From a virus: a DNA stretch of 64,000 nt. The translations under genes and the position numbers were made by a program. Positions within the stretch are counted from its first letter, which is position 1. Every line of letters starts with the position of its first letter. The notes beneath the pieces are model-generated. The model was given only the letters and a program-made list of their open reading frames with translations, had not been told where the DNA came from and searched no databases. The stretch lies in IMG/VR virus record IMGVR_UViG_3300007960_000015, positions 15,507 to 79,506 of that record, one strand, 5' to 3'. Below are positions 1,623-27,801 of the stretch, piece by piece.

Positions 1623-1624
1623 AT

Positions 1625-1632: not shown

Positions 1633-1664
1633 AGAGTAATAAGGTAAATTTCTCATAGGAAAAG

Positions 1665-1934
1665 ATGGCAGGAACCGTTTTAAAAATTAAACAAACATCA
1701 GTAGCCGGTAGAGTCCCTACCCATAATACTGGTAATAACACTGATATCGAACAGGGTGAATTAGCCTTAAATACAGCAGACCAAAAATTATTTTCAAAAG
1801 ATGCTAATGGCAATATATTTACTATTGGTGATCCAGAAATTTCATTGACATCAGACGGTATAATAAGCAAATTAATGAATTTGGGCCACAGTGCTGATGA
1901 AGACGGGGCTACTATAACATTCGATTTAAATTAA
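1665..1934 (+). CDS. Small structural protein (fibre N-terminal-like module)
   Basis: LKIKQTSVAGRVP...GELALNTADQKLF motif common at N-termini of phage fibre proteins. Confidence 0.6.
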   Translation: MAGTVLKIKQTSVAGRVPTHNTGNNTDIEQGELALNTADQKLFSKDANGNIFTIGDPEISLTSDGIISKLMNLGHSADEDGATITFDLN

Positions 1935-1943
1935 AGGTAAACT

Positions 1944-4805: not shown

Positions 4806-4815
4806 GGAGAATTAA

Positions 4816-5664
4816 ATGGGTTGGTCAGGATTTAGAAGTGGAATGTCGGATGGTCAGATTAGAACCCATACCGACGGCCGTAAATGGCAATGGAGTTCCT
4901 CAAATGGAAGATGGAATGTAGTAAGGAACACGACGACCACACTTGGTAACACAGGCCCAATGCCTGATCACCAATGGAATGGATACGAACTTAGATTCGA
5001 GTCTGATACTGGTGTTTGGGGAAGTTATACCAATCTTCGTGGTGCCACTGGCCCCCAAGGACCTACATTTACAGGTGGAACAAATCAACAAGTTACGGAT
5101 GATGCTTATTTCCTTAGCGAAATATATTATAATAAATGGGCAAGAAATGATGGAACAGAAGGTTTATACTGGACCGCTCATGGCAATCATTTTCATGCTA
5201 TCAATTCACAAGACATCAGAGTAAGAACCGGCTCAGGTAACGGTGGATTACAATTTACTGTTTCTGATACTACTGCTAGAGGATATATACATGCTACTAC
5301 GTCTAATGAAATTGGATTCTTAAATTCAAGTAGAAGTTGGTCCTTTAGATGTGATAATTCAGGAAATGTTACTGCAACATCTAATGTTACAGCTTATTCT
5401 GATAAGCGTCTAAAAGATAATATAAATACTATTGAGAACGGACTTGAGAAAGTAGAAGCCTTACGAGGCGTAACTTATACAAGGAAAGATAATGGTGAAG
5501 CAGGTATTGGTGTTATCGCCCAAGAGATCCAAGAGGTTTTACCTGAGTTAGTAAAAGATAATGGTGAAGCGTTATCTGTAGCCTATGGTAATATTACGGG
5601 CGTACTTATTGAAGCTGTTAAGGAATTATCAGCACGTGTTAAAGAACTAGAAGATAATAAATAG
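4816..5664 (+). CDS. Tail fibre protein with C-terminal peptidase S74 intramolecular chaperone
   Basis: AYSDKRLKDNI...LRGVTY...GVIAQEIQEVLPELV...LIEAVKEL; AAGGAG RBS. Confidence 0.85.
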   Translation: MGWSGFRSGMSDGQIRTHTDGRKWQWSSSNGRWNVVRNTTTTLGNTGPMPDHQWNGYELRFESDTGVWGSYTNLRGATGPQGPTFTGGTNQQVTDDAYFLSEIYYNKWARNDGTEGLYWTAHGNHFHAINSQDIRVRTGSGNGGLQFTVSDTTARGYIHATTSNEIGFLNSSRSWSFRCDNSGNVTATSNVTAYSDKRLKDNINTIENGLEKVEALRGVTYTRKDNGEAGIGVIAQEIQEVLPELVKDNGEALSVAYGNITGVLIEAVKELSARVKELEDNK

Positions 5665-12339: not shown

Positions 12340-12769
12340 TGAAGGTGAATTCAAAGATGAATTAGAGCAAGATTTTAAGAAGGCTATGAGGTATGATAAT
12401 ATTAAGTTTGAAAATCCTGATAGACTTCGTGAAATAGATAAAAAGAATAATCTATTATCAAGACGAGGTGCTCATATTACATTGCATGATGTAGCAAGTT
12501 TTATAAAGTTTATTGATATTTCAATGCAAAGGGGTATTGTACAAGACCCAGGAGAAAAAGAAGATATTATTGCACTTAAGCAAAGATTGATCAAATTCTT
12601 AAATTTAGCTACTCCAGAAAACTATGATATTTTAGCCGATGCAGAACTGACTCAGAAGTTTGCAGAAGAAGAAAGAGCTAGGATTGAAGCGACTAGAAGA
12701 CCGGATGGATCCCTACCGGCTGATGATGACAAGCAAAAAAAGACTGGAGGAGCTCCATTCCCGATATAA
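12332..12769 (+). CDS. Hypothetical protein
   Basis: 145 aa ORF coupled to the upstream gene; AAGGAG RBS. Confidence 0.55.
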   Translation: MIDEGEFKDELEQDFKKAMRYDNIKFENPDRLREIDKKNNLLSRRGAHITLHDVASFIKFIDISMQRGIVQDPGEKEDIIALKQRLIKFLNLATPENYDILADAELTQKFAEEERARIEATRRPDGSLPADDDKQKKTGGAPFPI

Positions 12770-12783
12770 ATATCTTATAAATA
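12765..12783 (+). promoter_or_regulatory. Tandem T4 late promoters (TATAAATA at 12765 and 12776)
   Basis: Two exact consensus copies upstream of ATG 12809. Confidence 0.7.
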
Positions 12784-12808
12784 TAATTAAACTCTTATAG
12801 GTGTAACT

Positions 12809-13438
12809 ATGGCTCGTCCTTTACAAATTAAATATAATTCTGGCTCATTCCAAGGCATCCAAGAAATTGGATCAAATATGACTTTGGGTGATGAATCTAC
12901 TGCCACTACTAAAATTACTTTTAAGGGGCACACAACTCAACATGGTGAGTTTTATTCACAACATGTTGATACAGATACAGGTTCGCCGAATGCTGGATAT
13001 TCTTTCCACTTTAATTCGACAGAAACCTCCACAAATGTAGTTCTTGATAATGGTGGATATTTCATTGGAACTGCTACTTCAGTTGATTATGCGGACTTGG
13101 CAGAGAAATATTTACCCGATGCAGAATATGGCGAAGGTGTTGTATTAGCTATTGGTGGTGAGAACGAAGTTACTGAATATAAATCAGGCATGCCTTTAGC
13201 AGGCGTTGTTTCTCTTATACCAGCATTTGAAATGAATTCAAGTTTAGAAGGTGGTGTATTTGTAGCACTAAAAGGACGTGTTCCATGTAAGATTAATGGT
13301 TCGGCAAAGAAAGGCGATATTATCATTGCTGATGATAATGGTGCTGGAAAGGCTGTTGATGCTATTACCACATTTGCTGATCAAAAGATTGGTATTGCTT
13401 TAGAAGACGGTGAGGGAATAATTGAAGTAAAAATTTAA
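12809..13438 (+). CDS. Short fibre/appendage protein with peptidase G2-like autocleaving chaperone
   Basis: DYADLAEKY...G.VLAIGGENEVT...GVVS..PAF.MN...VALKGRVPCK..G..KKGD motif. Confidence 0.65.
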   Translation: MARPLQIKYNSGSFQGIQEIGSNMTLGDESTATTKITFKGHTTQHGEFYSQHVDTDTGSPNAGYSFHFNSTETSTNVVLDNGGYFIGTATSVDYADLAEKYLPDAEYGEGVVLAIGGENEVTEYKSGMPLAGVVSLIPAFEMNSSLEGGVFVALKGRVPCKINGSAKKGDIIIADDNGAGKAVDAITTFADQKIGIALEDGEGIIEVKI

Positions 13439-13444
13439 TATATA

Positions 13445-14179
13445 ATGATTGGTATTATTGGTTATGGTATGGTTGGCTCTGCCTTAAAAGAAGCCTTCTA
13501 CAAAGAAACAATAGTTGTTGTAGATCCTAAATTTAATGATGTAACTATTAAAGATTTAGTTAATCGCAAACCCAAAGCAATATTTGTTTGTGTTCCTACT
13601 CCAACAGATAATTCAAACTACATTATAATAAGAAGTGTTCTGGATGAACTCAAACTCTTATATGATGGTTTGGTTATAGTAAAATCTACAATTCTTCCTG
13701 AAGTTCTTGAACCCTATGATGTTATATACAATCCTGAGTTTTTAAGTAGGGCTACAGCTAAAGACGATATGGTTAAACCTCCGATGGTAGTGATTGGTGG
13801 TGATTCAGAAGAAAAATGTAACAAGTTGGCTGCATTATATGCGAAGCACTCTATTATTGATTTAAGTAATTTATTCTTTTGTACAGTAAGACAAGCTTGC
13901 TATATTAAATATATGATGAATACATTTTATGCAACGAAGATAACGTTTATGAATGAAATGTATGATATAATTAATTCAGCTGAAGATTTTGAGGTAGTAA
14001 CTCAGGCTTGCGCAGCACATCCTTGGATGGGTACACATCATTTTCAAGTACCAGGTCCAGATGGAAAGCGTGGATTCGGTGGCCCTTGCCTTCCCAAGGA
14101 TACTAAGGCATTAAATGATATGAATCCGGATTCTTTATTAGGAAAGGTATTGGAGTTAAACGAAACATATAGAAAATGA
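13445..14179 (+). CDS. ugd: UDP-glucose/nucleotide-sugar 6-dehydrogenase (compact)
   Basis: GYGMVG, CVPTP, KST, YNPEFL and GFGGPCLPKD catalytic motif. Confidence 0.85.
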   Translation: MIGIIGYGMVGSALKEAFYKETIVVVDPKFNDVTIKDLVNRKPKAIFVCVPTPTDNSNYIIIRSVLDELKLLYDGLVIVKSTILPEVLEPYDVIYNPEFLSRATAKDDMVKPPMVVIGGDSEEKCNKLAALYAKHSIIDLSNLFFCTVRQACYIKYMMNTFYATKITFMNEMYDIINSAEDFEVVTQACAAHPWMGTHHFQVPGPDGKRGFGGPCLPKDTKALNDMNPDSLLGKVLELNETYRK

Positions 14180-15183
14180 AAACATTATTAGTTGTAATGA
14201 GTGAACAATGCAATTTAAATTGTTCTTATTGCAATGTAGATAAATGGTCAAAGACAAAGATTGACGTTAATACCTTTATAGATTATTATAAAGACCAAAG
14301 AAAGAAATATCCTGATGAGATGTTTAAGATTGATTTCTTTGGTGGTGAACCCCTCCTGCAGTTTGATGTTATGAAGGATATCGTGGCAAGAACAGAACAC
14401 GATCCTTTAGTAAAATATTTTATGCCTACTAATGGATTGGTTATCACCCAGGAGAAATTAGACTTTATAATTGATAAGCAAATAGAAGTATCATTATCAT
14501 TTGATGGTTTATGGCAAGATGATAATAGACCACAATTAAGTGGAAGTGGTACATTAACTAAATACCTAGCCAAGAAAGATATATTAAAACAAATTCCTAA
14601 TCTTAGATGCCACTCTATGATAGGTTCTGGTAATCATAATTTATTAGAAAATCATTTGTTTATTGAAGATGTGTTTGGTGTTGCCTCTGAATTTACATTA
14701 GTTAGAGACATTGGTATTTGGGATAAAGAAGGTGTTGAATCATTAAAGGAAGGTATAAAGGAATTAATGGAATGGTATTCTGTTAATACCCATAGAGAAA
14801 TGCCTTTTTATATACGCTATTATTTAAGACATATGATAATGGCAAAGTATAAACAAGAAGAGGTTGATTCTTGTGGGGCTGGTGAATCTTTATTTACATT
14901 TAATGAAGATAATTCAGTAGTACCTTGTAATAGATTTAAAGATCAACCGGATGTTATTGCGAAGATACCTGAATTTAGAAAGATGTCCCCTTGTCAAACC
15001 TGCGAAGTAAGATCTTACTGCAGAAAGGGATGTTTATATGAGCAGATAAATAATAATGGACCTATTGAAGAATTGTGTGAGATATACAAATATACCTATA
15101 AAAGTATTGGTCAGCTGGTAGCTAATGTACAGGATGATCCAAACTTCCAAGCCGTAGTGAAGGAGGAAATTGAAAATGGCTAG
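14176..15183 (+). CDS. Radical SAM/SPASM protein
   Basis: CNLNCSYC, FFGGEPLL, SFDG; C-terminal CGAG...PC...CQTCEVRSYCRKGC...C. Confidence 0.9.
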   Translation: MKTLLVVMSEQCNLNCSYCNVDKWSKTKIDVNTFIDYYKDQRKKYPDEMFKIDFFGGEPLLQFDVMKDIVARTEHDPLVKYFMPTNGLVITQEKLDFIIDKQIEVSLSFDGLWQDDNRPQLSGSGTLTKYLAKKDILKQIPNLRCHSMIGSGNHNLLENHLFIEDVFGVASEFTLVRDIGIWDKEGVESLKEGIKELMEWYSVNTHREMPFYIRYYLRHMIMAKYKQEEVDSCGAGESLFTFNEDNSVVPCNRFKDQPDVIAKIPEFRKMSPCQTCEVRSYCRKGCLYEQINNNGPIEELCEIYKYTYKSIGQLVANVQDDPNFQAVVKEEIENG

Positions 15184-15394
15184 TATTAAACAAATGAATA
15201 AGGCTTTATTTAAGTCTTCTGCTCATCTATTTGAAGCAGCAAAATATCTATCAAATGTAGAGGAATTTCGTGAAGAGGCGGTGATGCTTCTTGAAATGGC
15301 AGACGAAATGTCTAGTATTATCCAACCTGAAAAAGAGAAAGTATCAAAGGATAAAATGGCCGATATATTATCAGAGATTACAAAAAATGCATGA
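15176..15394 (+). CDS. Small helical hypothetical protein between the two SPASM enzymes
   Basis: AGGAGG RBS before ATG 15176; overlaps both neighbours. Confidence 0.55.
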   Translation: MASIKQMNKALFKSSAHLFEAAKYLSNVEEFREEAVMLLEMADEMSSIIQPEKEKVSKDKMADILSEITKNA

Positions 15395-16523
15395 AATAAG
15401 TAACCAATTTACGTTAGAAATTACCACAGCAGCTCTATGTAACTTAGACTGTACTTATTGCTTTGAAGGTGCAAAGACAAATAAGAGACGTTTAGATACA
15501 GAACAAGTAGCAGCCTTGAAAAAAAGAATCTATGATTTTTTAGATAGTGATTTCTTTAAAGATAATTACGACAATCTGAATATATCTTTTTGGGGTGGTG
15601 AACCCACTCTAAATCCTGATTTAATTATTAACATTATGCAAGAGTATCAGCATATAGACAATGTCGGTTTCCATATTTACACTAATGCTTATGAAAGAAG
15701 AAGATTAGATAAGATTGTAGATAATATTGATAAGAGTAAACTTAATGTACAGATATCATATGATGGCCGGGATATTAATGATGTGTTTAGAGTAACTGCT
15801 ACTGGTAAGTCATCTGCTGATAAAGTATTAGAGAATCTTGAATACTTTGCTAAGAAAGGTGTTGCTATTTCGATGAAATCGACTATACCTCTTAAATCAA
15901 TGAGAACATTATATTCTACTTGGAAAGACTTTGAAAGAATGTATGAGAAGTATAATGCTATTGGTGATCATGTACAAATATCTTATGCCCCTACTATTGA
16001 CTATGTTGATGAATTACCTAGAGATGAAGCAGAAAAGCTTGTTGAAATATTCCGTGAGCAGATGATTAAAGTTGCTGCCGAAGAAATTAAATTTGTTAAC
16101 AAACACCAAAGACATTTATGCACTTGGTTTAATGGTTCTGATTCCAAACAGCATTGTGCTGCTGGTGCACACATGCATGCTATTGATGTGGATGGTAATA
16201 GTTATGCTTGCCATGGTGCTTTATACTCTCCTAATAAAGAAAAGATGCACGGAGGTAATATTGAGGATGAAAACTTTATAAATAAGATTGAGAAGATGAG
16301 TAATGAATATTCATCAGTAATTGGCCGCGGAGTAAGCGACGTCTGTAAAGACTGTGTCGCTACAACGTGTATGATTTGCCCGGTAGCCTCATTCGATATG
16401 AGTAATAAAGAAGACCACATGGATAGGTGGACCGATAGATGGGTAAACAACATGTGCGGATTTTTTAAGGCGTTTGGAGAAATAGATAGAACAGTTCAAG
16501 CGCATTTAGACGGAGATTTATAA
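15387..16523 (+). CDS. Radical SAM/SPASM protein
   Basis: CNLDCTYC, FWGGEPTL, SYDG; C-terminal CAAG...ACHG...CKDC...CMICP...C. Start placed at ATG 15387, overlapping the upstream ORF's end. Confidence 0.9.
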   Translation: MHEISNQFTLEITTAALCNLDCTYCFEGAKTNKRRLDTEQVAALKKRIYDFLDSDFFKDNYDNLNISFWGGEPTLNPDLIINIMQEYQHIDNVGFHIYTNAYERRRLDKIVDNIDKSKLNVQISYDGRDINDVFRVTATGKSSADKVLENLEYFAKKGVAISMKSTIPLKSMRTLYSTWKDFERMYEKYNAIGDHVQISYAPTIDYVDELPRDEAEKLVEIFREQMIKVAAEEIKFVNKHQRHLCTWFNGSDSKQHCAAGAHMHAIDVDGNSYACHGALYSPNKEKMHGGNIEDENFINKIEKMSNEYSSVIGRGVSDVCKDCVATTCMICPVASFDMSNKEDHMDRWTDRWVNNMCGFFKAFGEIDRTVQAHLDGDL

Positions 16524-17242
16524 TGGCATGTTCAGGAAGTCATTGCAGTAATCATGGAACTGGTACTTCTACTTGTTCCAACCATAGAGGTACTTGCTCT
16601 ACTAACAGGGCTTATAGCCCCTCTAGTGAGTTCACTGGAGGTTCAATTACAGCAGCAGATATCAATCTACTAAGAACTAATATTAGAGATGAGATAACAC
16701 GTTATAATCTTCATGCGGATCATTCTCACACACTACGCCAGGGCTCTGCTTATCAAACATCAACTGTAATAGATAATGCTCATATTAATGATATGGAGCA
16801 AATGGTATATGATGGTGAGAATAGAAAAGAAAGAGTTGGATCTAACTATGCATCTGTAGCTGGTGCTACTACCTGGGGTAATAAATCTATATCTTCATAT
16901 TCGGAAGGTTCTGTAATTAATGCATCACACTGGACAACACTTAAATCAAGATACGATAATCTAAGAACAGATTGTATATGTAATTCGGATTGTTCATGTA
17001 ATCTAGTTTGTGCTTGTCATAATGACTGTGGTTGTAACTACTCTGATATTAGATTAAAGAGAGAGATTCAATTCCTTGAAAAACGTGGTGATATTAATTA
17101 TTATTCATTTAAGTATATTTGGGATAATGTTAGAAGAACTGGTGTTATGGCACAAGAGATTCTTGAATCTAAGTGGAAAGATGCTGTGAAACAAGATAAG
17201 AAAGGTTATTATATGGTAGACTATTCAATGCTGCCTCAATAA
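16523..17242 (+). CDS. Cys-rich fibre-like protein with C-terminal peptidase S74 chaperone
   Basis: 4 Cys at the N-terminus, (CxCxxx)4 block, then YSDIRLKREI...GVMAQEI...GYYMVDYS S74 motif. Confidence 0.8.
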   Translation: MACSGSHCSNHGTGTSTCSNHRGTCSTNRAYSPSSEFTGGSITAADINLLRTNIRDEITRYNLHADHSHTLRQGSAYQTSTVIDNAHINDMEQMVYDGENRKERVGSNYASVAGATTWGNKSISSYSEGSVINASHWTTLKSRYDNLRTDCICNSDCSCNLVCACHNDCGCNYSDIRLKREIQFLEKRGDINYYSFKYIWDNVRRTGVMAQEILESKWKDAVKQDKKGYYMVDYSMLPQ

Positions 17243-17258
17243 AAAAAGGAGTTATATT

Positions 17259-17870
17259 ATGATGCTTTATGAACTCGCGTTGGTCGAAGACCGCGGATCC
17301 TATTGGTTTGTTACAAACGTAACAAGAAACACCCTAGACAATTTAGCAGAGGAAGGAGAAACAGTCCTTAAACTTTCTGCTAACTCATTTAAAATTATTA
17401 GTGATGCTATCAATGATGGTAAGGCTGTACATATTACAAAAACACGTATGGCTAGTGAAGTACTACCAATGGAGATTGAGGTACTAGATCATAGTGAGAC
17501 TGATCCATTAGATGAAGCTAGAAAGGCAGCTCTTATTAAGGTTAGAATGTTAGTTACGCCTGAGTTAGCTAAAATATCGGGTTTCGCATTATATGGATTT
17601 ATGATGCTTAATAATGATCTGGCTAATGCAGGATTCTTTATTACTAACGATAATAGGGAAGAGAAGTATCTCTCTATTCTTGAAACAGGTAATGAAGATT
17701 TAATTGAGAAGTTAGAAGATTATTTAAATTATAAAGACGAGATTGAAAATGTAGCTCATCTAGAAAGAAAGTTTTCTAAATTCAAAAAAGATCTTAGAAT
17801 TGCAACCACTGTAGAGGATGTACAAGGAATCCAAGATAGATTCCTAGATAAATTCTATTCAAATTTCTAA
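17259..17870 (+). CDS. Hypothetical protein
   Basis: 203 aa ORF with AAGGAG RBS. Confidence 0.6.
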   Translation: MMLYELALVEDRGSYWFVTNVTRNTLDNLAEEGETVLKLSANSFKIISDAINDGKAVHITKTRMASEVLPMEIEVLDHSETDPLDEARKAALIKVRMLVTPELAKISGFALYGFMMLNNDLANAGFFITNDNREEKYLSILETGNEDLIEKLEDYLNYKDEIENVAHLERKFSKFKKDLRIATTVEDVQGIQDRFLDKFYSNF

Positions 17871-18664
17871 TGAGACTTGCTGTAGTCTATAAGTTTAAAA
17901 ATCATAATAAACTTAACGGAACACTCTTTTATTGCTACGAATACTATAGAAAATTAAGGGAAAGTTATCCTTGTACAAAGTTTGTTATTATAGGCATTGA
18001 ACCTGATAATATTAAACTTATTGAGAAGGTATTTAAAGAAAAGTATAATAACTTTTATCCGATGGATATCATTCCATTCAAATCAGTAATTAGTTTATGG
18101 AAACAAAAGTTTGATCGAACTCTAATATTGGACATTGATACCTTTTATCAATGTAAAGAGTTTTGCACTAACGAAGTCCATGTGTTTAGTAATGATACTC
18201 ATGAGATGTATCGATACCCTGATGATAGACAAGTAACATACTATGGTGTGTATCCATACCAAAGATTCGATAAAGAATGTATGTTAAAACTCAACTTTAA
18301 TATAATGACTCCGGCTCAGAATAAACCTGGTGTGTTTGTTTCCTGTTTAGATATGACTCATCTAAAAAATAATATAAACAGATATGAAAGAGAGTTTCAA
18401 AGGCCTATTATATTAAAGAAAAGTCATGAGGGGTCTGGTTCAATTTTTGATGAAATTAACCAGGTGCATTATGTCCATGTACAAAGAGATACAAATAATA
18501 GAATTATACCCGAAGCATTCTTTCATAATAAGAAACTAACAATAGAAGAAGTATATAATGAAGATGATTCTATTATGAGGCGATATAATGATATTATTAA
18601 TAATGGATTAGATAATTATACTTTAAGTGATAGTGATTTGATGATTAAGGCATGTCTGCGATAG
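17870..18664 (+). CDS. Putative GT-B glycosyltransferase-like protein
   Basis: C-terminal DTNNRIIPEAFFHNKKL resembles the GT4 E-x7-E region; paralog of the next ORF. Confidence 0.4.
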   Translation: MRLAVVYKFKNHNKLNGTLFYCYEYYRKLRESYPCTKFVIIGIEPDNIKLIEKVFKEKYNNFYPMDIIPFKSVISLWKQKFDRTLILDIDTFYQCKEFCTNEVHVFSNDTHEMYRYPDDRQVTYYGVYPYQRFDKECMLKLNFNIMTPAQNKPGVFVSCLDMTHLKNNINRYEREFQRPIILKKSHEGSGSIFDEINQVHYVHVQRDTNNRIIPEAFFHNKKLTIEEVYNEDDSIMRRYNDIINNGLDNYTLSDSDLMIKACLR

Positions 18665-19530
18665 TAAAATTAGAAAATAAAGATCTTTGGCTTACCTATT
18701 CATGGAGTAATAATAACCATGGAATATGTGGACATACCTATGAAGTTATTGATTATTGGTATATCTTAAAAGATAAAATGAATGTGGGTATTGTCTTATG
18801 TGAAGACATTGACTCAGATACATTATTTAAAGCTGTGAGGTGTAGATATAACTTTAATACTTTAGAGATATCGGAATTAGAAAACTCAGTTGTATTTCAT
18901 AATAGACCAAAGATACTTACTGGAGGCTCTAAAATATTATTTACAGATGGTGGTATTGTAAATATGAGTAATGTCACATTATTATATGATAAGATATATT
19001 ATATGGCTTGTGGTAATAAACAGGTAAAAGATAATAATAAAGATAATGTGTATATTCTACAAGATGATAGAGTATATGAGAGAGTTAAAAAGAATGGAAT
19101 ACATTATGTTAAGAAGATTCTATTTGATAAGTTAAAGAAGCCAAGAGGGCAGTTAAATAATACTTTGGTTTATGGAACTAAGAATTGCAGACATATTGAA
19201 GATTATAGTGATTTACATCAATATGGCAATCTTTTAATTGTAACTAATAAAGAGAATAAACCTAAGGGATTGGTATCACTCCAGCCTCCAGTGCCTGATA
19301 TATTCAGATTATTTAAGACATATGTGTATACACCAGTAGCTAGGAAATGGGATTGTTCTCCAAGATTTTTAGCAGAATGTGTATACTTCAATAAAGAAGT
19401 TATCTTTCATAATATAGATTATTGGGAAGAGGATCACGGATTAAGAGTTAGATGGGACGATATCCAAAATAATTTTGAGAGTTTATATCTTAAAGAAGAT
19501 GATCCAATAATAGAGATTTTAAATGATTAG
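18652..19530 (+). CDS. Putative GT-B glycosyltransferase-like protein
   Basis: DCSPRFLAECVYFNKEV motif; paralog of the previous ORF. Confidence 0.4.
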   Translation: MSAIVKLENKDLWLTYSWSNNNHGICGHTYEVIDYWYILKDKMNVGIVLCEDIDSDTLFKAVRCRYNFNTLEISELENSVVFHNRPKILTGGSKILFTDGGIVNMSNVTLLYDKIYYMACGNKQVKDNNKDNVYILQDDRVYERVKKNGIHYVKKILFDKLKKPRGQLNNTLVYGTKNCRHIEDYSDLHQYGNLLIVTNKENKPKGLVSLQPPVPDIFRLFKTYVYTPVARKWDCSPRFLAECVYFNKEVIFHNIDYWEEDHGLRVRWDDIQNNFESLYLKEDDPIIEILND

Positions 19531-20356
19531 CATTGAGATTATCGAAGGCTGTAATTTTAAGTGTTACTTTTGTGCGGCCAAAGATATTGACAAATATAAG
19601 TTTATGGATATTGATGTCTTTAAGAAAGCTGTGCTTGAGGCGAGGGAACTAGGTATTAAGACAGTTGATATGATTCCTTCCAGAGGTGATCCATTTCTTC
19701 ATCCGCACATTTATGAGATGTTAGACTTCATAAATGAGCATATGGAAGAGATTTTAATATTTACTAATGCTACTCCTGTTAATGTAGCTAAGCTAAGTCA
19801 GTGTAATCTATCCCACACTATATTATCCATCTCTCTTTATGGAAAGACAACAGAAAAATTTATTGAGTTAACAAAGACAGATGAGAGAATGTTTAATAAA
19901 TTTAATAAAAAGCTGAGGGAACTAGATGAGGCTGGTATAAAATATAACATAGAGAGAAGGGATGAGGACTATGAATTCGATACTCATGGAGTAGCAAAAA
20001 ACGATTTTGATGCGTCTCAGAAGTGTAAATTTCATCATATACCGAAGATTCTTGTGGATGGTAGTGTAACATTCTGCCGTACTGCCTGGAGTAGTAATGG
20101 TCTTTCTATTGGTAATCTATCTAACAAAGACCTACATGATATGTTATCAGATCCTATAAGATATAAGTTTATGGACTCCCAAAGTATATGTGAACATGCA
20201 TGTGATTCATATGAGATTAATTGTAACACAAAGACAACATTCGCTGCTATAAAACTGATGAGTGAAAGCAGAGCTAGATACTTAAGTAGTCATGTTGATA
20301 CTGAAATTAGATATAAGAAATTAGAAAATGAGACTATACAACGAACTGAGTCATAG
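19523..20356 (+). CDS. Radical SAM protein (twitch/SPASM-like C-terminus)
   Basis: CNFKCYFC, GDPFLHP, TNA; C...DGSVTFC...IGNL...CEHAC. Confidence 0.85.
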   Translation: MISIEIIEGCNFKCYFCAAKDIDKYKFMDIDVFKKAVLEARELGIKTVDMIPSRGDPFLHPHIYEMLDFINEHMEEILIFTNATPVNVAKLSQCNLSHTILSISLYGKTTEKFIELTKTDERMFNKFNKKLRELDEAGIKYNIERRDEDYEFDTHGVAKNDFDASQKCKFHHIPKILVDGSVTFCRTAWSSNGLSIGNLSNKDLHDMLSDPIRYKFMDSQSICEHACDSYEINCNTKTTFAAIKLMSESRARYLSSHVDTEIRYKKLENETIQRTES

Positions 20357-21335
20357 AGAAATTGAAATAGATTATGATACTCCATATTGTAATCGTGGTA
20401 AATTAGATACAGGAACTCACTGTAACTATCGCTGTGGCTTTTGTTATTACTATAATCAGTTAGACCAGAAGACTCCCTTTAAGGAAGTTAAAAAAAGAAT
20501 AGATCATTTGGTTGAATGTGGTATTGCTGAAGCAGATTTATCTGGTGGTGAGAGCTCTATACATGCAGACTGGTTTAATATCCTGGATTACTGTAAAGAA
20601 AAAGGATTGAAAGTTTCTTGTCTCTCAAATGGATCAATGTTTTCTAAGTATGAATTTTTAGAGAAATCAAAGCAGCATGGATTAGATGAGATACTTTTTT
20701 CTTTACATGGCTTTGATGAAGAAAGTCATAATAAATTAGTTGGTGTTAAGGCCGGCTTCAGAAAGATAACTCAATCAATAGTGTTTGCAAATCAGTTAGG
20801 TATTAAGGTAAGACTTAATTGTACTGTAACAAAAGACAATTATAAGGAACTAGATAACAAGTTTGTTGATCTTGTCCATCAGTTTGATGTAGCACAAGTT
20901 AATTTTCTAACTCTAAACTATTGGGACGATGCAAATGCACAGGATGCATTCCCATATAAGGAAGCAACAGAGTCAATAAAAAGAGCTATTGATAAGTTAG
21001 AAGTACCAGACAAAAGAGTACGTTATACTCCCTTCTGCTATCTTAAGGGTTACGAAAAACACCTCTTCGGGTATTATCAACATATCTATGACCTCTCTGA
21101 TTGGAATATCGCTACCTATGGACATACTATTGATCCGAGAGAGTATGTCGGTAACGAGTTAAAGCATTTATATTTAGCTGCTGAGAGGCAGAGAAACGCA
21201 ACTTATAAGAAAAATAAAGAGTGCCTGGATTGTAAACATTATTATATCTGTGATGGATATGAAAAGAAACATGGTGAACTGGAAGTGTTTCCAGAGCCTG
21301 GGGAAAAGATTAAGAAGGTAACACATTACTTATGA
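20328..21335 (+). CDS. Radical SAM protein
   Basis: CNYRCGFC, SGGES, SNG, FSLHG; C-terminal CLDCKHYYICDG. Confidence 0.9.
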   Translation: MRLYNELSHREIEIDYDTPYCNRGKLDTGTHCNYRCGFCYYYNQLDQKTPFKEVKKRIDHLVECGIAEADLSGGESSIHADWFNILDYCKEKGLKVSCLSNGSMFSKYEFLEKSKQHGLDEILFSLHGFDEESHNKLVGVKAGFRKITQSIVFANQLGIKVRLNCTVTKDNYKELDNKFVDLVHQFDVAQVNFLTLNYWDDANAQDAFPYKEATESIKRAIDKLEVPDKRVRYTPFCYLKGYEKHLFGYYQHIYDLSDWNIATYGHTIDPREYVGNELKHLYLAAERQRNATYKKNKECLDCKHYYICDGYEKKHGELEVFPEPGEKIKKVTHYL

Positions 21336-21973
21336 ATATTCTAGTTATTGGTGGTGGCGAATATGGAAAGTTCGGCAACGACTTTGTAATAAAGGCAAGA
21401 GAAGATGGACATAGAGTCCTTGTCTTATCTCATAGAAGAAGAGCAGATGATCCAGATCAGGTTATTGCTAACTTCACATCAACAAATGATATTATAGAGA
21501 AGGTAAATTTTTTATGTAAATTAGTTGACCAAATCGATATTATGTTGTATAATACATCTGCCGATGGGGAGCCCAGGGTGCCTATAGCCTATACGAGTGG
21601 TGGTGTTATTAATGAGAGTCTTTATCTGTTTAACTTCAGACTTCATGCTGTTATTCCTCATGTAATTGCTAATACTGTAATGGAATATATGAGGGGCGGA
21701 AAGATGATCTTTATTACTACCGACATGATTCATGATAGAGAAAGAAGTAAGTATCTTGAGAATGTTGGTTATTGTGGCGGTAAGGCATTCCAGCATCAGT
21801 TAATGTTAGCGTTAGCTGAATATAATGATAGGAACTTAACTGTATCTTCTATCTCTCCTTTCTTTGATTATAATAATAAAGAGTGTTATAAGTCAGTATT
21901 TGATGCCGCATACAATTATATTTTTGATCATGGAGAAGAGATGAATGGAAAGATATTCGAGTGTTTTGATTAA
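21332..21973 (+). CDS. Short-chain dehydrogenase/reductase-like protein
   Basis: ILVIGGGEYGKFG Rossmann motif; YCGGK (YxxxK). Confidence 0.65.
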   Translation: MNILVIGGGEYGKFGNDFVIKAREDGHRVLVLSHRRRADDPDQVIANFTSTNDIIEKVNFLCKLVDQIDIMLYNTSADGEPRVPIAYTSGGVINESLYLFNFRLHAVIPHVIANTVMEYMRGGKMIFITTDMIHDRERSKYLENVGYCGGKAFQHQLMLALAEYNDRNLTVSSISPFFDYNNKECYKSVFDAAYNYIFDHGEEMNGKIFECFD

Positions 21974-22608
21974 TGCATGATGATTACTACCTTGGTGGAT
22001 ATGATGATGAAGGAACATACACCTTATATGTTACCTATAAGTGTAACTGGAGATGTGACTATTGCTCAGAAGATACATGGAATAGACCGAGGGTTAATAA
22101 CCTGCAGGAGAAACTTGACGCCATTGTAGAAGGATCGGATGTATCAATTACTGGTGGAGAGCCAGGTATCCTTCCTAAGGATATAATGGAAGATGTCATT
22201 AGGCAACTGAAAGAAAAGAAATGTATAATAAATGTCAATACAAATGGAACATTTTTTAAGAGGTTTAAGTATCTTGATGAACAGGTAGATAGTTATCTCT
22301 ATCATTGTTCAGAGCAATTAGAGGATGAAGAGATTATTATCCCTGACATTGATCAGAATAAGATACAATACATGTTAGTCATTACAGATGACAATATGGA
22401 TAGGTTAGAATATTATGTAAGTAAGTATCCTAATATAAACTTTTTAGTGTTTGGAGCTGATAATGTTATTGGTAAAGGACTATCAAGGAAGAATGGTTTT
22501 GAGATATCAAGAAAGTACAGGGGAAGGATAGATGATGATTCACATATACATTTGATTACAACCTGCTGGGAAGTAAATCAGATGAGGAATCTAAGAGCAT
22601 TACGATGA
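21973..22608 (+). CDS. Minimal radical SAM protein (short paralog 1 of 3)
   Basis: CNWRCDYC, TGGEPG, TNG, YHCSE. Confidence 0.85.
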   Translation: MHDDYYLGGYDDEGTYTLYVTYKCNWRCDYCSEDTWNRPRVNNLQEKLDAIVEGSDVSITGGEPGILPKDIMEDVIRQLKEKKCIINVNTNGTFFKRFKYLDEQVDSYLYHCSEQLEDEEIIIPDIDQNKIQYMLVITDDNMDRLEYYVSKYPNINFLVFGADNVIGKGLSRKNGFEISRKYRGRIDDDSHIHLITTCWEVNQMRNLRALR

Positions 22609-23177
22609 AGGAAGTAGAATTATCATTAACTAATAAGTGTCAATGGCACTGTGATTATTGTGTAGCTGATATACATAATCAACCTCTTCGTAAATATAAA
22701 GATGTATTAGAAGATGCGAGGAATATATTACCTAAAACAGAAGTAACTTTTTCTGGTGGTGAGCCTGGCCTTCTTAAAAGAGAACAGATTAAGGAGTTAA
22801 TTTCTATACTGGAAGAAAAAAACTGTCCGATAGATCTATTAACTAACGGACTTTTCATAAAGAGATTTCCTGATTTATTAAAACATTTTGGAAAGGTTCA
22901 TTATCATTGTGTAGAATATATCGGAGATGACATTGAATTTCCTAATAGAGATGATGTAATATATTGTGTTGTGGTTGAAGATAAGAACTTATTAGACGGA
23001 AGTTTAATTAAGATGATTAATAGATATCCTCATATTAAATTTTTAACTTTATTTGACGTAAGGAACCAACACAAGATTAATCTTAATAATATGAAGAAGT
23101 TTGTTAATGAATATAAAGATAAGATACATCCTACGGCTTTAGATGAATTCATTACTGTAGTGAGTAGGTGGCATTGA
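22605..23177 (+). CDS. Minimal radical SAM protein (short paralog 2 of 3)
   Basis: CQWHCDYC, SGGEPG, TNG, YHCVE. Confidence 0.85.
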   Translation: MKEVELSLTNKCQWHCDYCVADIHNQPLRKYKDVLEDARNILPKTEVTFSGGEPGLLKREQIKELISILEEKNCPIDLLTNGLFIKRFPDLLKHFGKVHYHCVEYIGDDIEFPNRDDVIYCVVVEDKNLLDGSLIKMINRYPHIKFLTLFDVRNQHKINLNNMKKFVNEYKDKIHPTALDEFITVVSRWH

Positions 23178-23782
23178 TGGCTATACAAGCGAAAGAAAAA
23201 GAAATTGAATTAGTTATTACTTGGACTTGTCAATGGCATTGTGAATATTGTTGTGTAGATACTCATAACAGGCCTAAATTATCTTTTGATGAAGTTAAAA
23301 AGAAATTAGATAAAATTATACCCGGATATAATGTGACATTATCTGGCGGTGAACCTGGTGCTCTAAAAAGAGAGCAATTAGAATTTTTATTAGATGAGCT
23401 TGAGAAGAGAGGATGTGAACCTTCTATCAATACTAATGGTTTATTCTTAAAGAAGTATCCAGATCTTATTGATAGATTCGCCACGATATTGTATCATTGT
23501 AGTGAAGATATTAATTTGGATGATCCATTGTTAATAGGTGATTATGAATATCTATTAATAGTAACCGATAATAACTTTGAAAGGCTAGGACCATTTTTAG
23601 ACAAGTATCCGGATATACAATTTAATTTAGTAGCTGCTACCAATCCGAAGGGAATATACGGTGTTACTTTATCTATTGAAAACAAACATAAAATGTTAAA
23701 ACTATACCATAATAGAATGACTAAAGAATCTATTAAGAGAGTATTTAAAGAGAAAGATTTTGATGCAATCACCTATCTATAA
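23177..23782 (+). CDS. Minimal radical SAM protein (short paralog 3 of 3)
   Basis: CQWHCEYC, SGGEPG, TNG, YHCSE; start at ATG 23177 (TGATG overlap). Confidence 0.85.
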   Translation: MAIQAKEKEIELVITWTCQWHCEYCCVDTHNRPKLSFDEVKKKLDKIIPGYNVTLSGGEPGALKREQLEFLLDELEKRGCEPSINTNGLFLKKYPDLIDRFATILYHCSEDINLDDPLLIGDYEYLLIVTDNNFERLGPFLDKYPDIQFNLVAATNPKGIYGVTLSIENKHKMLKLYHNRMTKESIKRVFKEKDFDAITYL

Positions 23783-24647
23783 AGAACAAAATAAAGAAGA
23801 CATAATCAGGATTGAATTAGAATTAACTTCTCTTTGCAATCTTAAATGTCCCTTATGTGTAAGAGAAACATTTCCGGTTGCCAAATATGATACAAGAGGG
23901 TATAATAGTATTATTGAGCAATTAAATGAGTATTCGAATCTTAAATTTGTAACTATAGCCGGTGCGATAAGTGAACCTACTAGTCATCCCGATCTATTTA
24001 AAATAATACAGTATCTTAATGATAGAGATATTGAAATTTCATTATACATTAACGGTGATACTAAAACAGATTTATATTACTCTAAATTAGGATTAATATT
24101 TAGGGGATGTAAGGGCCATGTCTATTTCACTATTGCTGGATCAACACAAGAACTCCATGAGAGATATAGAGTAGGATCAGATAGACAAAGGGTATTAAGG
24201 CGTTTAGATTTAGTTAACAAATATTCTGGTAATAAAGGCATATTAACGTGGTTGGTATTTAATTATAATCAGGAGGATTTTGAACAGAACTATCAATATT
24301 ATAAAGACAGATATAATACTGAGTTCTTTCATACTCTTCCTTTCCAAGAACATTTTAATTGGGATATAGATATACACCTACCTAAAAAAGAACATGAATT
24401 GTATATAACTCAGATTAATAGAAATGTATATCCAACAACTTGCGTATCTAATCAAAATAACTTTGTACAGATATTACATGATGGGGAGGTAACTCCCTGT
24501 TCTTTATATAGACTCCATGGTGAAAAACATTGTTGGGAGTGCCATAAAGAAAACCTGGATATGTTAAGAAAGAATAAGATTTATAATATAGCAGAGAGTG
24601 AAACTGAGACCTCTGAAATACCATTAAGGTTGTATTATGATTGTTAG
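23763..24647 (+). CDS. Radical SAM protein (SEPT-type paralog 1 of 3)
   Basis: CNLKCPLC, GAISEPT, FTIAGSTQELHERYR; C-terminal Cys cluster. Confidence 0.85.
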   Translation: MQSPIYKEQNKEDIIRIELELTSLCNLKCPLCVRETFPVAKYDTRGYNSIIEQLNEYSNLKFVTIAGAISEPTSHPDLFKIIQYLNDRDIEISLYINGDTKTDLYYSKLGLIFRGCKGHVYFTIAGSTQELHERYRVGSDRQRVLRRLDLVNKYSGNKGILTWLVFNYNQEDFEQNYQYYKDRYNTEFFHTLPFQEHFNWDIDIHLPKKEHELYITQINRNVYPTTCVSNQNNFVQILHDGEVTPCSLYRLHGEKHCWECHKENLDMLRKNKIYNIAESETETSEIPLRLYYDC

Positions 24648-25548
24648 TAAAGCGGATATTGAAGAAATAGAAATGGATTTGGTGGGGATGTGTAATCTAT
24701 CGTGTCCTCTGTGTACTAGAAATTATGTTCATGCAGAACATATGCTATCTAAAAATGTACGCCATATTGATGAGATAATTAAACAATTAGATCAATATCC
24801 CAACTTACAAAGGTTCTTTGTTGCTGGCGCTGTATCTGAACCTACTATGTACAAATACTTCGATGAATTTATTGATTATTTAAATAGCAGAGACATATAT
24901 TATGAAATATTCACTAATGGTAATACAAGAAGTGAAGATTGGTGGTATCAATTAGGACAGAAGGTTCCTTCAAAATGTTTTACAGCATTTACTATATGTG
25001 GAAGCAATCAAGAAATGCATGAGAAATATAGAGTAGGTTCTTCATTAGATGAAATCCTAAGGCATGCCAGGGCTTATAGAAAGGCCGGAAAGAATAATGA
25101 TATGATACAAACTATTAGATTTGATTATAATAAAGAAGATTTAGAGTCATCTCAAATGAAAGAACTTATTGATGAGTTCTCTCTTCATCTTCCTGTTGAT
25201 ACTGAAGGAATAAGAAGGCGTAATGAATATCAAGAAGATGTAGCAGATGGTGTACAGCCCATTGAGATTAGAGATCAACTTATTAAACAATTATTTGCGA
25301 GAAGACCTAAACCAGATGATGGAAAGGAATATACTATACAATGTAACTCCATAAAGAATAAAAAAATATACATTAATCAATATGGACAGGTAGCTGCTTG
25401 TTATATCCACGCAGAGAATGAACAGGATTATTTTGACGATGTAATGGATTATGGTGATATTTTAGAATTTAAATACCCGGATTGTTTTGTATGTGAAAAA
25501 CAAACGAGAACATTTATTGAAAAAATGGGATTAGAATTTATATGTTAA
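24637..25548 (+). CDS. Radical SAM protein (SEPT-type paralog 2 of 3)
   Basis: CNLSCPLC, GAVSEPT, FTICGSNQEMHEKYR; C...ACY...CFVC. Confidence 0.85.
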   Translation: MIVSKADIEEIEMDLVGMCNLSCPLCTRNYVHAEHMLSKNVRHIDEIIKQLDQYPNLQRFFVAGAVSEPTMYKYFDEFIDYLNSRDIYYEIFTNGNTRSEDWWYQLGQKVPSKCFTAFTICGSNQEMHEKYRVGSSLDEILRHARAYRKAGKNNDMIQTIRFDYNKEDLESSQMKELIDEFSLHLPVDTEGIRRRNEYQEDVADGVQPIEIRDQLIKQLFARRPKPDDGKEYTIQCNSIKNKKIYINQYGQVAACYIHAENEQDYFDDVMDYGDILEFKYPDCFVCEKQTRTFIEKMGLEFIC

Positions 25549-26420
25549 TTGAAGAAATTGAAATTGAATTAACCTCTATATGTAATGCGAAATGCCAATT
25601 GTGTTATAGGAATTATAAAAGTTATAAGCCCACTAAAATCATTAGACCTATTGATGATGTTATATCTCAATTGGATAGTTATAAGTCACTTAAACGCATT
25701 AAATTAGTAGGAGTAGAATCGGAGCCTACTATCCATCCTGAGTTTCTTAAATTGATTACTTGGCTAAAATCAGAGGATATTCATATTGAAATATGTACTA
25801 ACGGCGATACTAAAACACCTGCCTTTTGGAGAAAATTGGGTATACTATTAGATAAGGACGATGAAGTTTATTTTACTATATGTGGAAGTACTCAAGAGCT
25901 ACATCAAAGATATAGAAGAAATACCAGATTAGATAAAATACTTAGGAATGCGGCTGCTATGAGGGAAGCAGGAAAGCCGACCGATTATGCACAATGTATT
26001 AGATTCTCATATAATGACGAGGACTTTAATAGTAAGAAATTTCAGGATATGGTATCTGTATTCTCCAACGTCTATTGGACTGAAACCTATCTCCATAAAG
26101 ATTTAAATAATTATGTTGATATTGAAGGGATGGAATATTTAACCCCACCTATACAAAAGCAAGATAGTTATTATAAGGTAGAATTATTAGCTGATGCTTT
26201 ATATAAAGCAGATGGATTTAAAGAGACATTATGTATGGCTGAAGAAAGTAAGTCGATTCAGATAGATGTTCATGGTAATCTATATCCGTGTTATCTTCAT
26301 AAAGAAGCTGATATTCCGTGGACGGGTGAGTATGGAAGTGGAGAGATTGAAACATGCAAGTTTTGTATTAAAGGCGTTAGACAATTATGTCATGATAAAC
26401 AATTGGAGTATGTAATATGA
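25542..26420 (+). CDS. Radical SAM protein (SEPT-type paralog 3 of 3)
   Basis: CNAKCQLC, GVESEPT, FTICGSTQELHQRYR; C...PCY...CKFC. Confidence 0.85.
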   Translation: MLIEEIEIELTSICNAKCQLCYRNYKSYKPTKIIRPIDDVISQLDSYKSLKRIKLVGVESEPTIHPEFLKLITWLKSEDIHIEICTNGDTKTPAFWRKLGILLDKDDEVYFTICGSTQELHQRYRRNTRLDKILRNAAAMREAGKPTDYAQCIRFSYNDEDFNSKKFQDMVSVFSNVYWTETYLHKDLNNYVDIEGMEYLTPPIQKQDSYYKVELLADALYKADGFKETLCMAEESKSIQIDVHGNLYPCYLHKEADIPWTGEYGSGEIETCKFCIKGVRQLCHDKQLEYVI

Positions 26421-27208
26421 AAAATATATTAATTACTGGGGGCGGAGGAACTATAGGTGCTGGCTTAGTTAAAAGTTTATATGAAAGATATAATGTAATA
26501 GCACAAGATATTTCTGAATATAATTTATATAAGTTAAAGCGCGAAATACCCTCGTTAAAGATATCTTGTGGTGATTTAAAAAATAGAAATTATGTGCGTC
26601 GTCTATTTGATAATAATGAGATAGATACCGTATTCCATTGCGCTGCCTATAAACATGTGGATTTACAAGAAGAGGATTTTCAAACGACCTGGGATAATAA
26701 TGTTAAGCCTGTTATTAATATTCTTAATCATGAGTTTGATACATTCGTTTTATTATCTACAGATAAGGCGGTGGACGCTGTGAATAATATGGGGAAGACA
26801 AAGAGAAAATGCGAAACCTTAACAAAATCATCTGATAATCAGAAGAATAGAAAAATCGTAAGGTTTGGTAATGTATATGGATCTTCAGGATCATTTATTG
26901 AGACTATGAATTGGCAAATAGAAAATAATATGCCGGTTACCATTACTGATGTGGACATGTCAAGATATTTTCTTACATTAGATGAGGCTGTAGAAATGTT
27001 AGAAAAGGTGGTTGAAATCGATGAGGGAAATGGGACATATATATTAGACATGGGAGAAGAGGTTAAGATTATTGACCTTGTGCCACCTTTGCATCCTATT
27101 GATATTATCGGAATAAGACCTGGTGAAAAGATTAAAGAAGTATTGTATTCCGGAAACCAGGAATTAATTGATACAAGTGATGAGAAAATTAAAAAAATAT
27201 TATGGTAA
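26417..27208 (+). CDS. UDP-GlcNAc 4,6-dehydratase (CapD/PglF/PseB-like catalytic domain)
   Basis: TGGGGTIG, FHCAAYKHV, STDKAV, VRFGNVYGSSGS, GIRPGEK. Confidence 0.85.
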   Translation: MKNILITGGGGTIGAGLVKSLYERYNVIAQDISEYNLYKLKREIPSLKISCGDLKNRNYVRRLFDNNEIDTVFHCAAYKHVDLQEEDFQTTWDNNVKPVINILNHEFDTFVLLSTDKAVDAVNNMGKTKRKCETLTKSSDNQKNRKIVRFGNVYGSSGSFIETMNWQIENNMPVTITDVDMSRYFLTLDEAVEMLEKVVEIDEGNGTYILDMGEEVKIIDLVPPLHPIDIIGIRPGEKIKEVLYSGNQELIDTSDEKIKKILW

Positions 27209-27801
27209 ATAATAATGATTTTATAGAATTATTTGAAAAGAGGTTATGTGAATTTACCGGTGCACCTTACGCTGTTGCAGTAGATTGTTGTACTAATGCT
27301 ATCCTCCTTAGTGTAGTTGCTTCTAATATTAATAGTATAATCACTCTTCCAAGTAATACCTATCTTTCTGTTCCTATGACGTTAATTAATAATGGCTATG
27401 ATATATCATTCCATGATTATAAGTGGAATGAGTCTTATAAAGTAACACACAATATATGGGATTGTGCTGTTGGTTTTAAAGAAGGCATGTATTCAGTAGG
27501 ACAAGTTCAATGTTTATCCTTCCAACAAAAAAAGAGATTACCTATAGGGAAGGGAGGAGCCATATTAACTGATGATATGGAGTTAGCAAAGAAACTTCGT
27601 AGATTAAGGCACGATGGTAGAGACTCTTCAATTCCTGTTGTTGATGATGATCCCAAGAAAATTACAATAGGTTATCATATGTACATGAGCCCCGATCAGG
27701 CTGCGAAGGGTATACTCCTTCTTAATCAAATCCAAGAATATAAAAAATCAGGATGGTATGATTATCCTGACATTTCTAAATTACCATGCTTTACGCCTTA
27801 A
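27202..27801 (+). CDS. DegT/DnrJ/EryC1/StrS sugar aminotransferase (compact)
   Basis: FE..LCEFTGAPYAVAVD, WDCA, LSFQQKK..IGKGGAILTDD, LRHDG; only 199 aa. Confidence 0.8.
   Translation: MVNNNDFIELFEKRLCEFTGAPYAVAVDCCTNAILLSVVASNINSIITLPSNTYLSVPMTLINNGYDISFHDYKWNESYKVTHNIWDCAVGFKEGMYSVGQVQCLSFQQKKRLPIGKGGAILTDDMELAKKLRRLRHDGRDSSIPVVDDDPKKITIGYHMYMSPDQAAKGILLLNQIQEYKKSGWYDYPDISKLPCFTP

Follow-up and report, generated by a model that had tools for sequence, protein, structure and literature searches.

A radical SAM/SPASM enzyme pair and a cysteine-array protein with an S74 domain share a conserved gene module in phages and predatory bacteria

A 64,000-nucleotide stretch of viral DNA (the window; positions 15,507 to 79,506 of IMG/VR record IMGVR_UViG_3300007960_000015) encodes two radical SAM/SPASM enzymes, here called rSAM1 and rSAM2, immediately upstream of a cysteine-rich protein that ends in a Peptidase S74 domain. 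The window belongs to a virus record of 79.5 kb with the gene content of a T4-like myovirus, and the carrier of the two enzymes is an aquatic T4-like phage. Genes for enzymes and cysteine arrays of this kind are paired near-obligately in phages and in predatory bacteria. Comparison of these loci strongly supports the SPASM enzymes and the Cys-array/S74 protein as one functional unit. The interpretation favored here, with somewhat better than even confidence, is that the dedicated SPASM pair, together with the downstream protein orf203 and a small partner protein, modifies the Cys arrays of a late, S74-assembled and probably virion-associated protein. The genes concerned are as follows, in window positions.

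14176..15183, + strand: rSAM1, a radical SAM/SPASM enzyme of 335 residues that matches PF04055.
15176..15394, + strand: an acidic, helical protein of 73 residues without cysteine, between rSAM1 and rSAM2, with no family match.
15390..16523, + strand: rSAM2, a radical SAM/SPASM enzyme of 377 residues that matches PF04055.
16523..17242, + strand: the Cys-rich (Cys-array) protein of 239 residues, with a Cys array and an S74 domain.
17259..17870, + strand: orf203, a small β-barrel with long helices, conserved directly 3′ of the array gene.

The pairing of enzymes and arrays has been probed in both directions, as proposed in a preliminary description of this DNA made from its letters alone, and they pair in each. 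Homologues without radical SAM neighbors, which that description had named as the outcome that would speak against it if common, were not encountered in the forward direction: an rSAM2 homologue lies directly upstream in 16 of 16 IMG/VR loci with relatives of the array protein, rSAM1 is present in 15 of the 16, and orf203 lies downstream in all of them. A Cys-free or Cys-poor open reading frame (ORF) always separates the two enzymes, and the other radical SAM genes (rSAM3-10) and the sugar genes vary from locus to locus. The reverse search used an rSAM2 profile that included the homologue from Campylobacter phage CP220 and returned 64 viral loci (matches of at least 250 residues, 22–67% identity). 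A same-strand Cys-array ORF lies within 6 kb in 55 of these, starting −60 to +300 nucleotides from the rSAM2 stop codon in 36 of the 55. A Cys-array ORF is absent from all 15 loci whose radical SAM matches are no more than weak and partial, and rSAM2 is the enzyme most tightly linked to the array genes. Many of the loci found in reverse carry heptad repeats, (CTC[N/D]CNY)n, in place of the hexad array of the window. Scanning DNA for the heptad pattern alone gave 40 loci, 30 of them with genes of the rSAM1/2 clade; in nine of the other ten, the flanking sequence on the relevant side is too short to judge. The association holds at enzyme identities down to about 25–30%, across array types, phage lineages and predatory bacteria, and is among the most consistent neighborhoods that can be expected from metagenomic data.

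Two further features of these loci bear on the relationship between enzyme and array. Two to four tandem array genes may stand beside a single enzyme set (L061:9765-12362, L071:9489-11555, L040:7132-8280 and L047:7107-8275; heptad, paralogous), an arrangement that by analogy resembles multi-precursor loci for peptides that are made on the ribosome and modified after translation (RiPPs). In a quick, unrooted maximum-likelihood tree of rSAM2, hexad and heptad arrays fall in separate supported clades; the hexad clade has 29 rows (27 of them hexad), and the array label changes 8 times over the tree versus 28.9 in shuffles. Bacterial sequences lie among the viral hexad-type sequences in this tree. 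Separately, at locus L016 the intact array gene is directly followed by another copy that seems to be degraded (L016:10148-10571), being split into ORFs of 96 and 38 residues.

The Cys-array protein itself has twelve cysteines in its 239 residues and begins with MACSGSHCSNHGTGTSTCSNHRGTC, in which CSNH occurs twice. Its parts are given below.

16523..16609, + strand: N-terminal Cys/His motif, MACSGSHCSNHGTGTSTCSNHRGTCSTNR, in which C18, C25, R22 and N28 are at least 90% conserved.
16610..16972, + strand: helical core of the mature protein, with helices at residues 44–61, 85–99 and 134–149.
16973..17035, + strand: cysteine array of the (CxCxxx)4 type, the proposed modification site, read from the DNA as CIC NSD CSC NLV CAC HND CGC.
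17036..17047, + strand: predicted S74 autocleavage site N-Y/S-D, with the cut expected between 17041 and 17042 (Y173/S174).
17042..17242, + strand: S74 intramolecular chaperone domain (PF13884), residues 174–239 plus stop codon; phrog_6121, 3.8e-12; predicted local distance difference test score (pLDDT) 84–94.

The array segment encodes CICNSDCSCNLVCACHNDCGC, followed by NY SDIRLK. Among 126 family members, C153, C157, C163, C165, C169, C171 and Y173 are invariant, and C151, N154, D156, C159, N160 and N172 are at least 90% conserved. Given this conservation, the array is evidently not a chance feature. The conservation of N154, D156, N160 and N172 to the same degree as the array cysteines fits Cys-to-Asn/Asp thioethers, which it does not prove. 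The family is large: a word-indexed search gave 184 homologues of the array protein, and a profile of the mature part matched 362 cluster representatives (E ≤0.001) among 1.84 billion proteins. The same module also stands at the C-terminus of relatives of 400–790 residues, some with repeated sequence segments, and motifs resembling MAC.GH...C open many of the heptad-array proteins. An AlphaFold2 monomer model built from the 126-row alignment has a pLDDT of 79 overall and about 90 for the three helices. The N-terminal Cys motif and the C-terminal array (pLDDT below 50) are its sole poorly defined parts, which would fit segments whose ordering depends on modification or assembly. The idea that each enzyme serves one of the two Cys segments was also considered and is not claimed, as the N-terminal Cys count does not track the presence of rSAM1 cleanly enough.

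The S74 assignment is based on a PF13884 score of 24.3 bits (cut-off 22) over residues 174–215, which align with profile positions 1–51, position 1 falling on S174. S174 and K179 of SDIRLK, which we take to be the catalytic dyad from what is known of the endosialidase CIMCD, have the S-x4-K spacing, conserved in at least 90% of the 126 sequences. Similar to other Peptidase S74 domains of endosialidases and tail-fiber chaperones, the domain is C-terminal and starts at the Ser of the dyad. In contrast to them, it is very short (66 residues), it is preceded by a Cys array on a helical protein of about 170 residues rather than by a long fiber, and its family has natural forms in which S74 is split (trans) or missing. 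Three kinds of C-terminus occur among the members: a full S74 domain, its first strand only (NY-SDxRLKxxIxY[L/M/F/C]-stop), or a stop at ...CGCNY with at most one extra residue. At six of the first-strand-only loci, a separate ORF of about 90 residues just downstream encodes the rest of S74 (viral contigs L034, L038, L041, L053 and L076, and Peredibacter L100:7112-7986), and the separate Peredibacter fragment matches tail-fiber C-termini in PHROGs. These comparisons suggest that S74 can function in cis or in trans and is dispensable in some members, and that all three forms would converge on a mature protein ending in the array. The placement of the array at the C-terminal end after removal of S74 is supported because natural variants stop at ...CGCNY or split off S74. 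Consequently, the earlier proposal that S74 is a removable follower that exposes the array gains support from natural variants, and the autocleavage itself would follow the known behavior of the S74 family. The split forms are of interest in their own right, as an intramolecular chaperone would there become trans-acting.

Membership of rSAM1 and rSAM2 in the radical SAM superfamily is indicated by PF04055 scores of 39.1 and 46.9 bits, respectively, versus a cut-off of 29.5. The CX3CX2C motif (C12/C16/C19 in rSAM1, C17/C21/C24 in rSAM2) and GGEP are invariant in both family alignments, as are seven further cysteines, C-terminal residues 233, 251, 273, 276, 282, 286 and 301 in rSAM1 and residues 256, 274, 319, 322, 327, 330 and 356 in rSAM2. 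Both sets follow the SPASM spacing (C...C, CX2CX4-5CX2-3C, C), which corresponds to two auxiliary 4Fe-4S clusters. SPASM-family NCBIfam models align across this seven-Cys region of both enzymes, and neither enzyme reaches the threshold of the Pfam SPASM model PF13186. The best NCBIfam model for both is the PapB Cys-Asp thioether maturase, at 110.8 bits for rSAM1 and 106.9 bits for rSAM2, scores that are about 30 bits above the next family and far under the 340-bit curated equivalog cut-off of NF047865, leaving both enzymes outside that family. The closest PDB sequence for both is the thioether-forming CteB (E 1e-11 and 1e-13), followed for rSAM2 by anSME. The CteB alignments begin at about residue 97–106, past its N-terminal RiPP recognition element (RRE), with that of rSAM1 starting at residue 97 of 5wgg; because they begin after the RRE, and the enzymes have only 335 and 377 residues, rSAM1 and rSAM2 are taken to lack this domain.

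Comparison with characterized systems offers insight into the chemistry to be expected. Like PapB acting on PapA (freyrasin), where a SPASM enzyme works on repeated Cys...Asp motifs, the phage system has an array of repeated Cys with conserved Asp/Asn. Unlike PapA, the phage substrate is a protein of 150–240 residues with a helical core and S74 rather than a short leader-core peptide, and the phage locus has two paralogous enzymes in a structural-gene context. CteB, which acts on CteA (thermocellin; PDB 5wgg/5why), is the nearest solved structure by sequence and likewise a thioether-forming SPASM enzyme, and differs in bearing an N-terminal RRE that the phage enzymes lack. QhpD, acting on QhpC, and anSME are, like the proposed phage pair, radical SAM/SPASM enzymes whose substrates are proteins and not leader peptides. 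The thioethers formed by QhpD are of the Cys-Asp/Glu type and lie within a small subunit, and anSME lacks an RRE, as the phage enzymes do, and aligns full-length with rSAM2. The phage enzymes nevertheless score low against these models (61–72 bits versus cut-offs of 349–453), and their locus has neither a sulfatase motif nor amine dehydrogenase genes. Formylglycine formation of the anSME kind was rejected as the primary reading, as the sulfatase motif C/S-x-P/A-x-R is missing from the arrays. The earlier label of the module as RiPP-like thus stands as an analogy and fails as a class assignment: no RRE is found on the enzymes or on the 73-residue partner, and the substrate, in place of a short leader-core precursor, is a protein (239 residues in the window, 150–240 in general) with a folded core.

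Taken as a modification system, the module would work as follows. Its genes are probably transcribed late, along with the neighboring tail-fiber genes. In the reducing cytoplasm, rSAM1 and rSAM2 would abstract hydrogen atoms and modify the Cys-rich segments, the main target being the C-terminal (CxCxxx)4 array and probably also the N-terminal Cys/His motif. The likeliest product would be thioether cross-links from Cys sulfur to carbon atoms of the conserved Asn/Asp or of neighboring residues, comparable to those of ranthipeptides, sactipeptides and QhpC, rather than a bound metal or disulfides. The S74 domain would then nucleate trimerization of the array segment and cut between Y173 and S174, as is known for its family, and the cross-linked array would then form the C-terminus of a small and very stable protein associated with the virion. 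Both orf203 and the 73-residue protein would serve as obligate accessory factors, possibly presenting the substrate or assisting assembly in place of the missing RRE.

Several observations weigh against this proposal. Nine of the 64 rSAM2-clade loci have no array within 6 kb, and no rSAM gene is present in the 13.6 kb of upstream sequence available at one heptad locus (L195). Synteny among related phages can reflect shared ancestry, and the pattern of the rSAM2 tree, which fits co-diversification of enzyme and substrate, is equally expected from vertical co-inheritance. The sub-cut-off PapB scores and the lack of an RRE mean that the chemistry may differ from thioether formation. Finally, the monomer model of the array protein is a compact three-helix core with no obvious long fiber.

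The genomic surroundings of the module raise the main alternative. Tail-fiber genes occupy window positions 1-5664, and genes for a PAAR protein, neck, terminase, sheath, portal, scaffold and major capsid proteins lie at 39.5–53.4 kb. Between the tail-fiber genes and those for neck, terminase and sheath lies an island of about 20 kb (13445-32600, + strand), with the rSAM1/rSAM2/Cys-array module near its beginning. It contains ten PF04055 radical SAM genes, three of them encoding only 190–211 residues, and nucleotide-sugar genes for a UDP-glucose dehydrogenase, Polysacc_synt_2, DegT, an epimerase and a PIG-L deacetylase. Pelagimyophages and cyanomyophages possess a "host recognition cluster" with radical SAM cassettes, which this island matches (PMC7029224). 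The conserved neighborhood opens just upstream of the island with the following gene, homologues of which precede rSAM1 in many related loci.

12809..13438, + strand: tf209, 209 residues, with a tail-fiber-like C-terminal domain (phrog_19602, 3e-10; phrog_22593, 1e-13).

With eight further radical SAM genes and sugar-pathway genes in the island, a high density of radical SAM genes is not specific to the array protein, and rSAM1 and rSAM2 might act elsewhere, on an island sugar nucleotide, tf209, orf203 or a host molecule, and the array would then be a self-sufficient metal-thiolate cluster or inter-chain disulfide ladder in the S74-folded trimer core. The CxC spacing recalls metallothionein-type motifs, conservation of the cysteines is explicable without enzymes, and S74 alone would explain trimer folding. 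Trimeric fiber cores can also bind metal through paired residues, as in T4 gp37, where paired HxH residues are stacked around iron in the trimeric needle. This alternative is nonetheless considered unlikely. The pairing is specific to the rSAM1/rSAM2 clade, the other radical SAM and sugar genes come and go, and the association persists in CP220, where no sugar gene is adjacent. The tandem array genes beside one enzyme set and the conserved Asn/Asp of the array fit a substrate better. In searches of Pfam, NCBIfam and, by profile, PDB sequences, the array protein has no metallothionein-like family match.

As a further possibility, the Cys-rich protein would carry iron-sulfur or sulfur and load the phage radical SAM enzymes with clusters during infection. 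Twelve cysteines in 239 residues and an island of ten Fe-S-dependent enzymes would suit such a role. The protein has, however, no likeness to any Fe-S scaffold family in Pfam, NCBIfam or profile searches of PDB sequences, an S74 domain with split and absent variants makes no sense for a carrier, and the protein is paired with two specific SPASM enzymes even at loci that have no further radical SAM gene nearby. A carrier function is consequently regarded as very improbable.

The Campylobacter phages CP220, CPt10, CP21 and IBB_35 provide a link between array proteins and virions. Each encodes an rSAM2 homologue (30% identity over 90% of its length) and, about 2.2 kb upstream of it, a protein of 535 residues with (CTCDCNY)7 and further CxC motifs. 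The IBB_35 gene 3-9 product was identified by tandem mass spectrometry in purified virions (PMC3322345 supplement), and inspection of its sequence confirmed that it is the CxC-heptad array protein. These proteins (phrog_26958, Firehammervirus; CP220 gp140/IBB_35 gene 3-9) resemble the array protein of the window in having a helix followed by a CxC array that ends in CNY and in being encoded near an rSAM2 homologue. They differ in their length of 535 residues, in having heptads, (CTCDCNY)7, with scattered CxC motifs, and in lacking S74; PHROG lists them as "unknown function". These phages have 11–12 radical SAM genes along with amidinotransferases, to which no function was assigned (PMC2853527). 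According to their genome papers, Campylobacter phages have many of the gene types of the island in common with it.

The S74 domain, the position in a tail-fiber/host-recognition region, the late-promoter motifs described below and the detection of the IBB_35 protein together suggest that the array protein of the window phage is probably located in the virion. The earlier suggestion that the substrate is a fiber draws support from the S74 domain, the tail-fiber region and the IBB_35 virion data, and sits poorly with the compact helical monomer model. The array proteins might instead be non-virion precursors of a released product or of a protein-derived cofactor subunit, comparable to PqqA and QhpC, processed by the radical SAM pair and the remaining island genes, with S74 serving only as a processing protease. 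The tandem, multi-copy array genes are like RiPP precursor sets, the better NCBIfam matches of rSAM1 include QhpD (72 bits), an enzyme that cross-links a small protein subunit, and the module also occurs in bacterial chromosomes without capsid genes nearby. Against a released product, which is judged improbable, stand the role of S74 as a hallmark of trimeric fibers and spikes, the location of the module in the tail-fiber region, the presence of the Campylobacter phage array protein in virions, and homologues that are C-terminal modules of long proteins. Furthermore, the genes conserved alongside the module include neither a transporter nor a leader peptidase.

The closest cellular relatives of rSAM2 (45–50% identity) come from predatory bacteria: Halobacteriovorax (loci L098 and L099), Peredibacter (L100 and L180, chromosomal) and a Bdellovibrionales metagenome-assembled genome (L101). 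The chromosomal cassette consists of rSAM1, a small ORF, rSAM2, an array protein, orf203, orf264 and orf292, accompanied by additional radical SAM and sugar genes. Its neighbors in Peredibacter are cytochrome genes on one side and FtsK on the other, and no capsid genes were seen close by. The Peredibacter island ends with a protein that combines a type IV pilin methylation motif (PF07963) with a C-terminal S74 domain (L180:10212-11282; 60.5 bits), after which lies an ORF that, judged by eye, is similar to tf209. On this basis, a broader reading is offered tentatively, as a possibility that falls short of even likelihood: the cassette may be a widespread post-translational system for covalently welding the Cys-array tips of trimeric surface fibers, with S74 (fused, split or lost) as a self-removing follower, exchanged among T4-like, jumbo and Campylobacter phages and Bdellovibrio-like bacteria, which would use it on their own surface structures.

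To our knowledge, SPASM cross-linking has been described for small peptides that are secreted and for a few subunits of enzymes and not for virus particles, and no description of the present system was found in the searchable literature. The new aspect would be a SPASM maturase and its Cys-rich substrate set in virion or surface-fiber proteins, with an S74 follower in cis or in trans. If the proposal is correct, phages would construct or harden a structural and possibly receptor-binding component by RiPP-type chemistry, which would represent a new class of virion post-translational modification and provide a first function for some of the radical SAM clusters of Campylobacter phages, pelagimyophages and cyanomyophages. 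CxC repeat scaffolds and RRE-less enzymes may also be of use in peptide and protein engineering. The system is amenable to testing, as the proteins are small, the arrays are simple repeats and carriers are culturable (CP220/IBB_35-type phages, Peredibacter and Halobacteriovorax).

The ORFs, overlaps, peptide motifs and coordinates reported in the preliminary description are all present in the sequence. Read from the DNA, the stop codon of rSAM1 overlaps the start of the small ORF, the stop of the small ORF overlaps the ATG of rSAM2 (ATGCATGA), and TAATG joins rSAM2 to the Cys-protein gene with one base common to stop and start. A gap of 16 nucleotides containing GGAG precedes orf203. The small ORF may start at 15170 or 15176, with ATG 15176 most likely. 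The rSAM2 ORF was listed from TTG 15291, and its true start is ATG 15390, where homologue alignments begin. Almost every gene of the island overlaps or abuts its neighbor, and translational coupling is therefore not specific to the module. The gene pair downstream of orf203 is co-conserved with the module in most loci.

17870..19530, + strand: orf264 and orf292.

Homologues of the 73-residue protein (41–63% identity by tblastn) occur in 10 of the 16 family loci. Five more distant loci (L011, L012, L013, L015 and L016) have a Cys-poor ORF of 66–100 residues in the same position, with no cysteine in three and one each in L015 and L016. The 73-residue protein has no match in Pfam, PHROG or NCBIfam, and an Atlas structure search gave no lead, including among RRE-bearing proteins. 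Retained in 16 of 16 family loci, orf203 is also found in most heptad-type loci and in the islands of predatory bacteria. Its AlphaFold2 model (pLDDT 86) has no significant Foldseek match in the PDB, and a wide fold search with VIA-align returned only generic helical bundles, whose Z values (up to 9) do not exceed the background seen with helical models. Neither orf264 nor orf292 matches Pfam, and orf292 matches phrog_24441, which has no known function. No curated family was found for the array protein, orf203 or the small ORF in Pfam, PHROG or NCBIfam. The array-protein model likewise has no significant Foldseek match in the PDB, the family profile gives only insignificant, syntaxin-like helical matches among PDB sequences, and tblastn with the array protein matched only the S74 part, in Brucella phages. 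By megablast the module has no match among 50,697 phage records, a set that may lack relatives close to the source.

Expression of the module was approached through promoter motifs and transcript-derived contigs. The window has 17 copies of the T4-type late-promoter core TATAAATA, all on the + strand, including those at the following sites near the module.

12765..12783, + strand: two TATAAATA motifs just upstream of tf209.
16277..16284, + strand: a TATAAATA motif inside rSAM2 that precedes the array gene by 246 nucleotides and, by motif match only, might be an internal late promoter.

Other copies lie, for example, at 37329, 46243, 48599 and 53468, and several are just upstream of structural genes (sheath, portal). 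These motifs hint at late transcription, with a total equal to chance expectation. Scans for sigma-70 promoters and terminators gave background levels. Contigs at least 99% identical to 12801-13688 and 16381-17357 cover tf209, parts of rSAM2 and the array gene. They derive from two metatranscriptome libraries of one 2013 marine study, and the best DNA holders are labeled as freshwater metagenomes. The contigs are compatible with transcription, and DNA carry-over is another possible source; stretches that they leave uncovered (e.g. 14070-14577 and 17372-18387) are uninformative, and contig depth cannot rank the genes.

Beyond the island, a TctA-family transporter gene (35117-37282) lies on the − strand, the exception to the otherwise + strand coding. 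Downstream of it, a protein of 547 residues with an N-terminal PAAR domain is encoded at 39545-41188.

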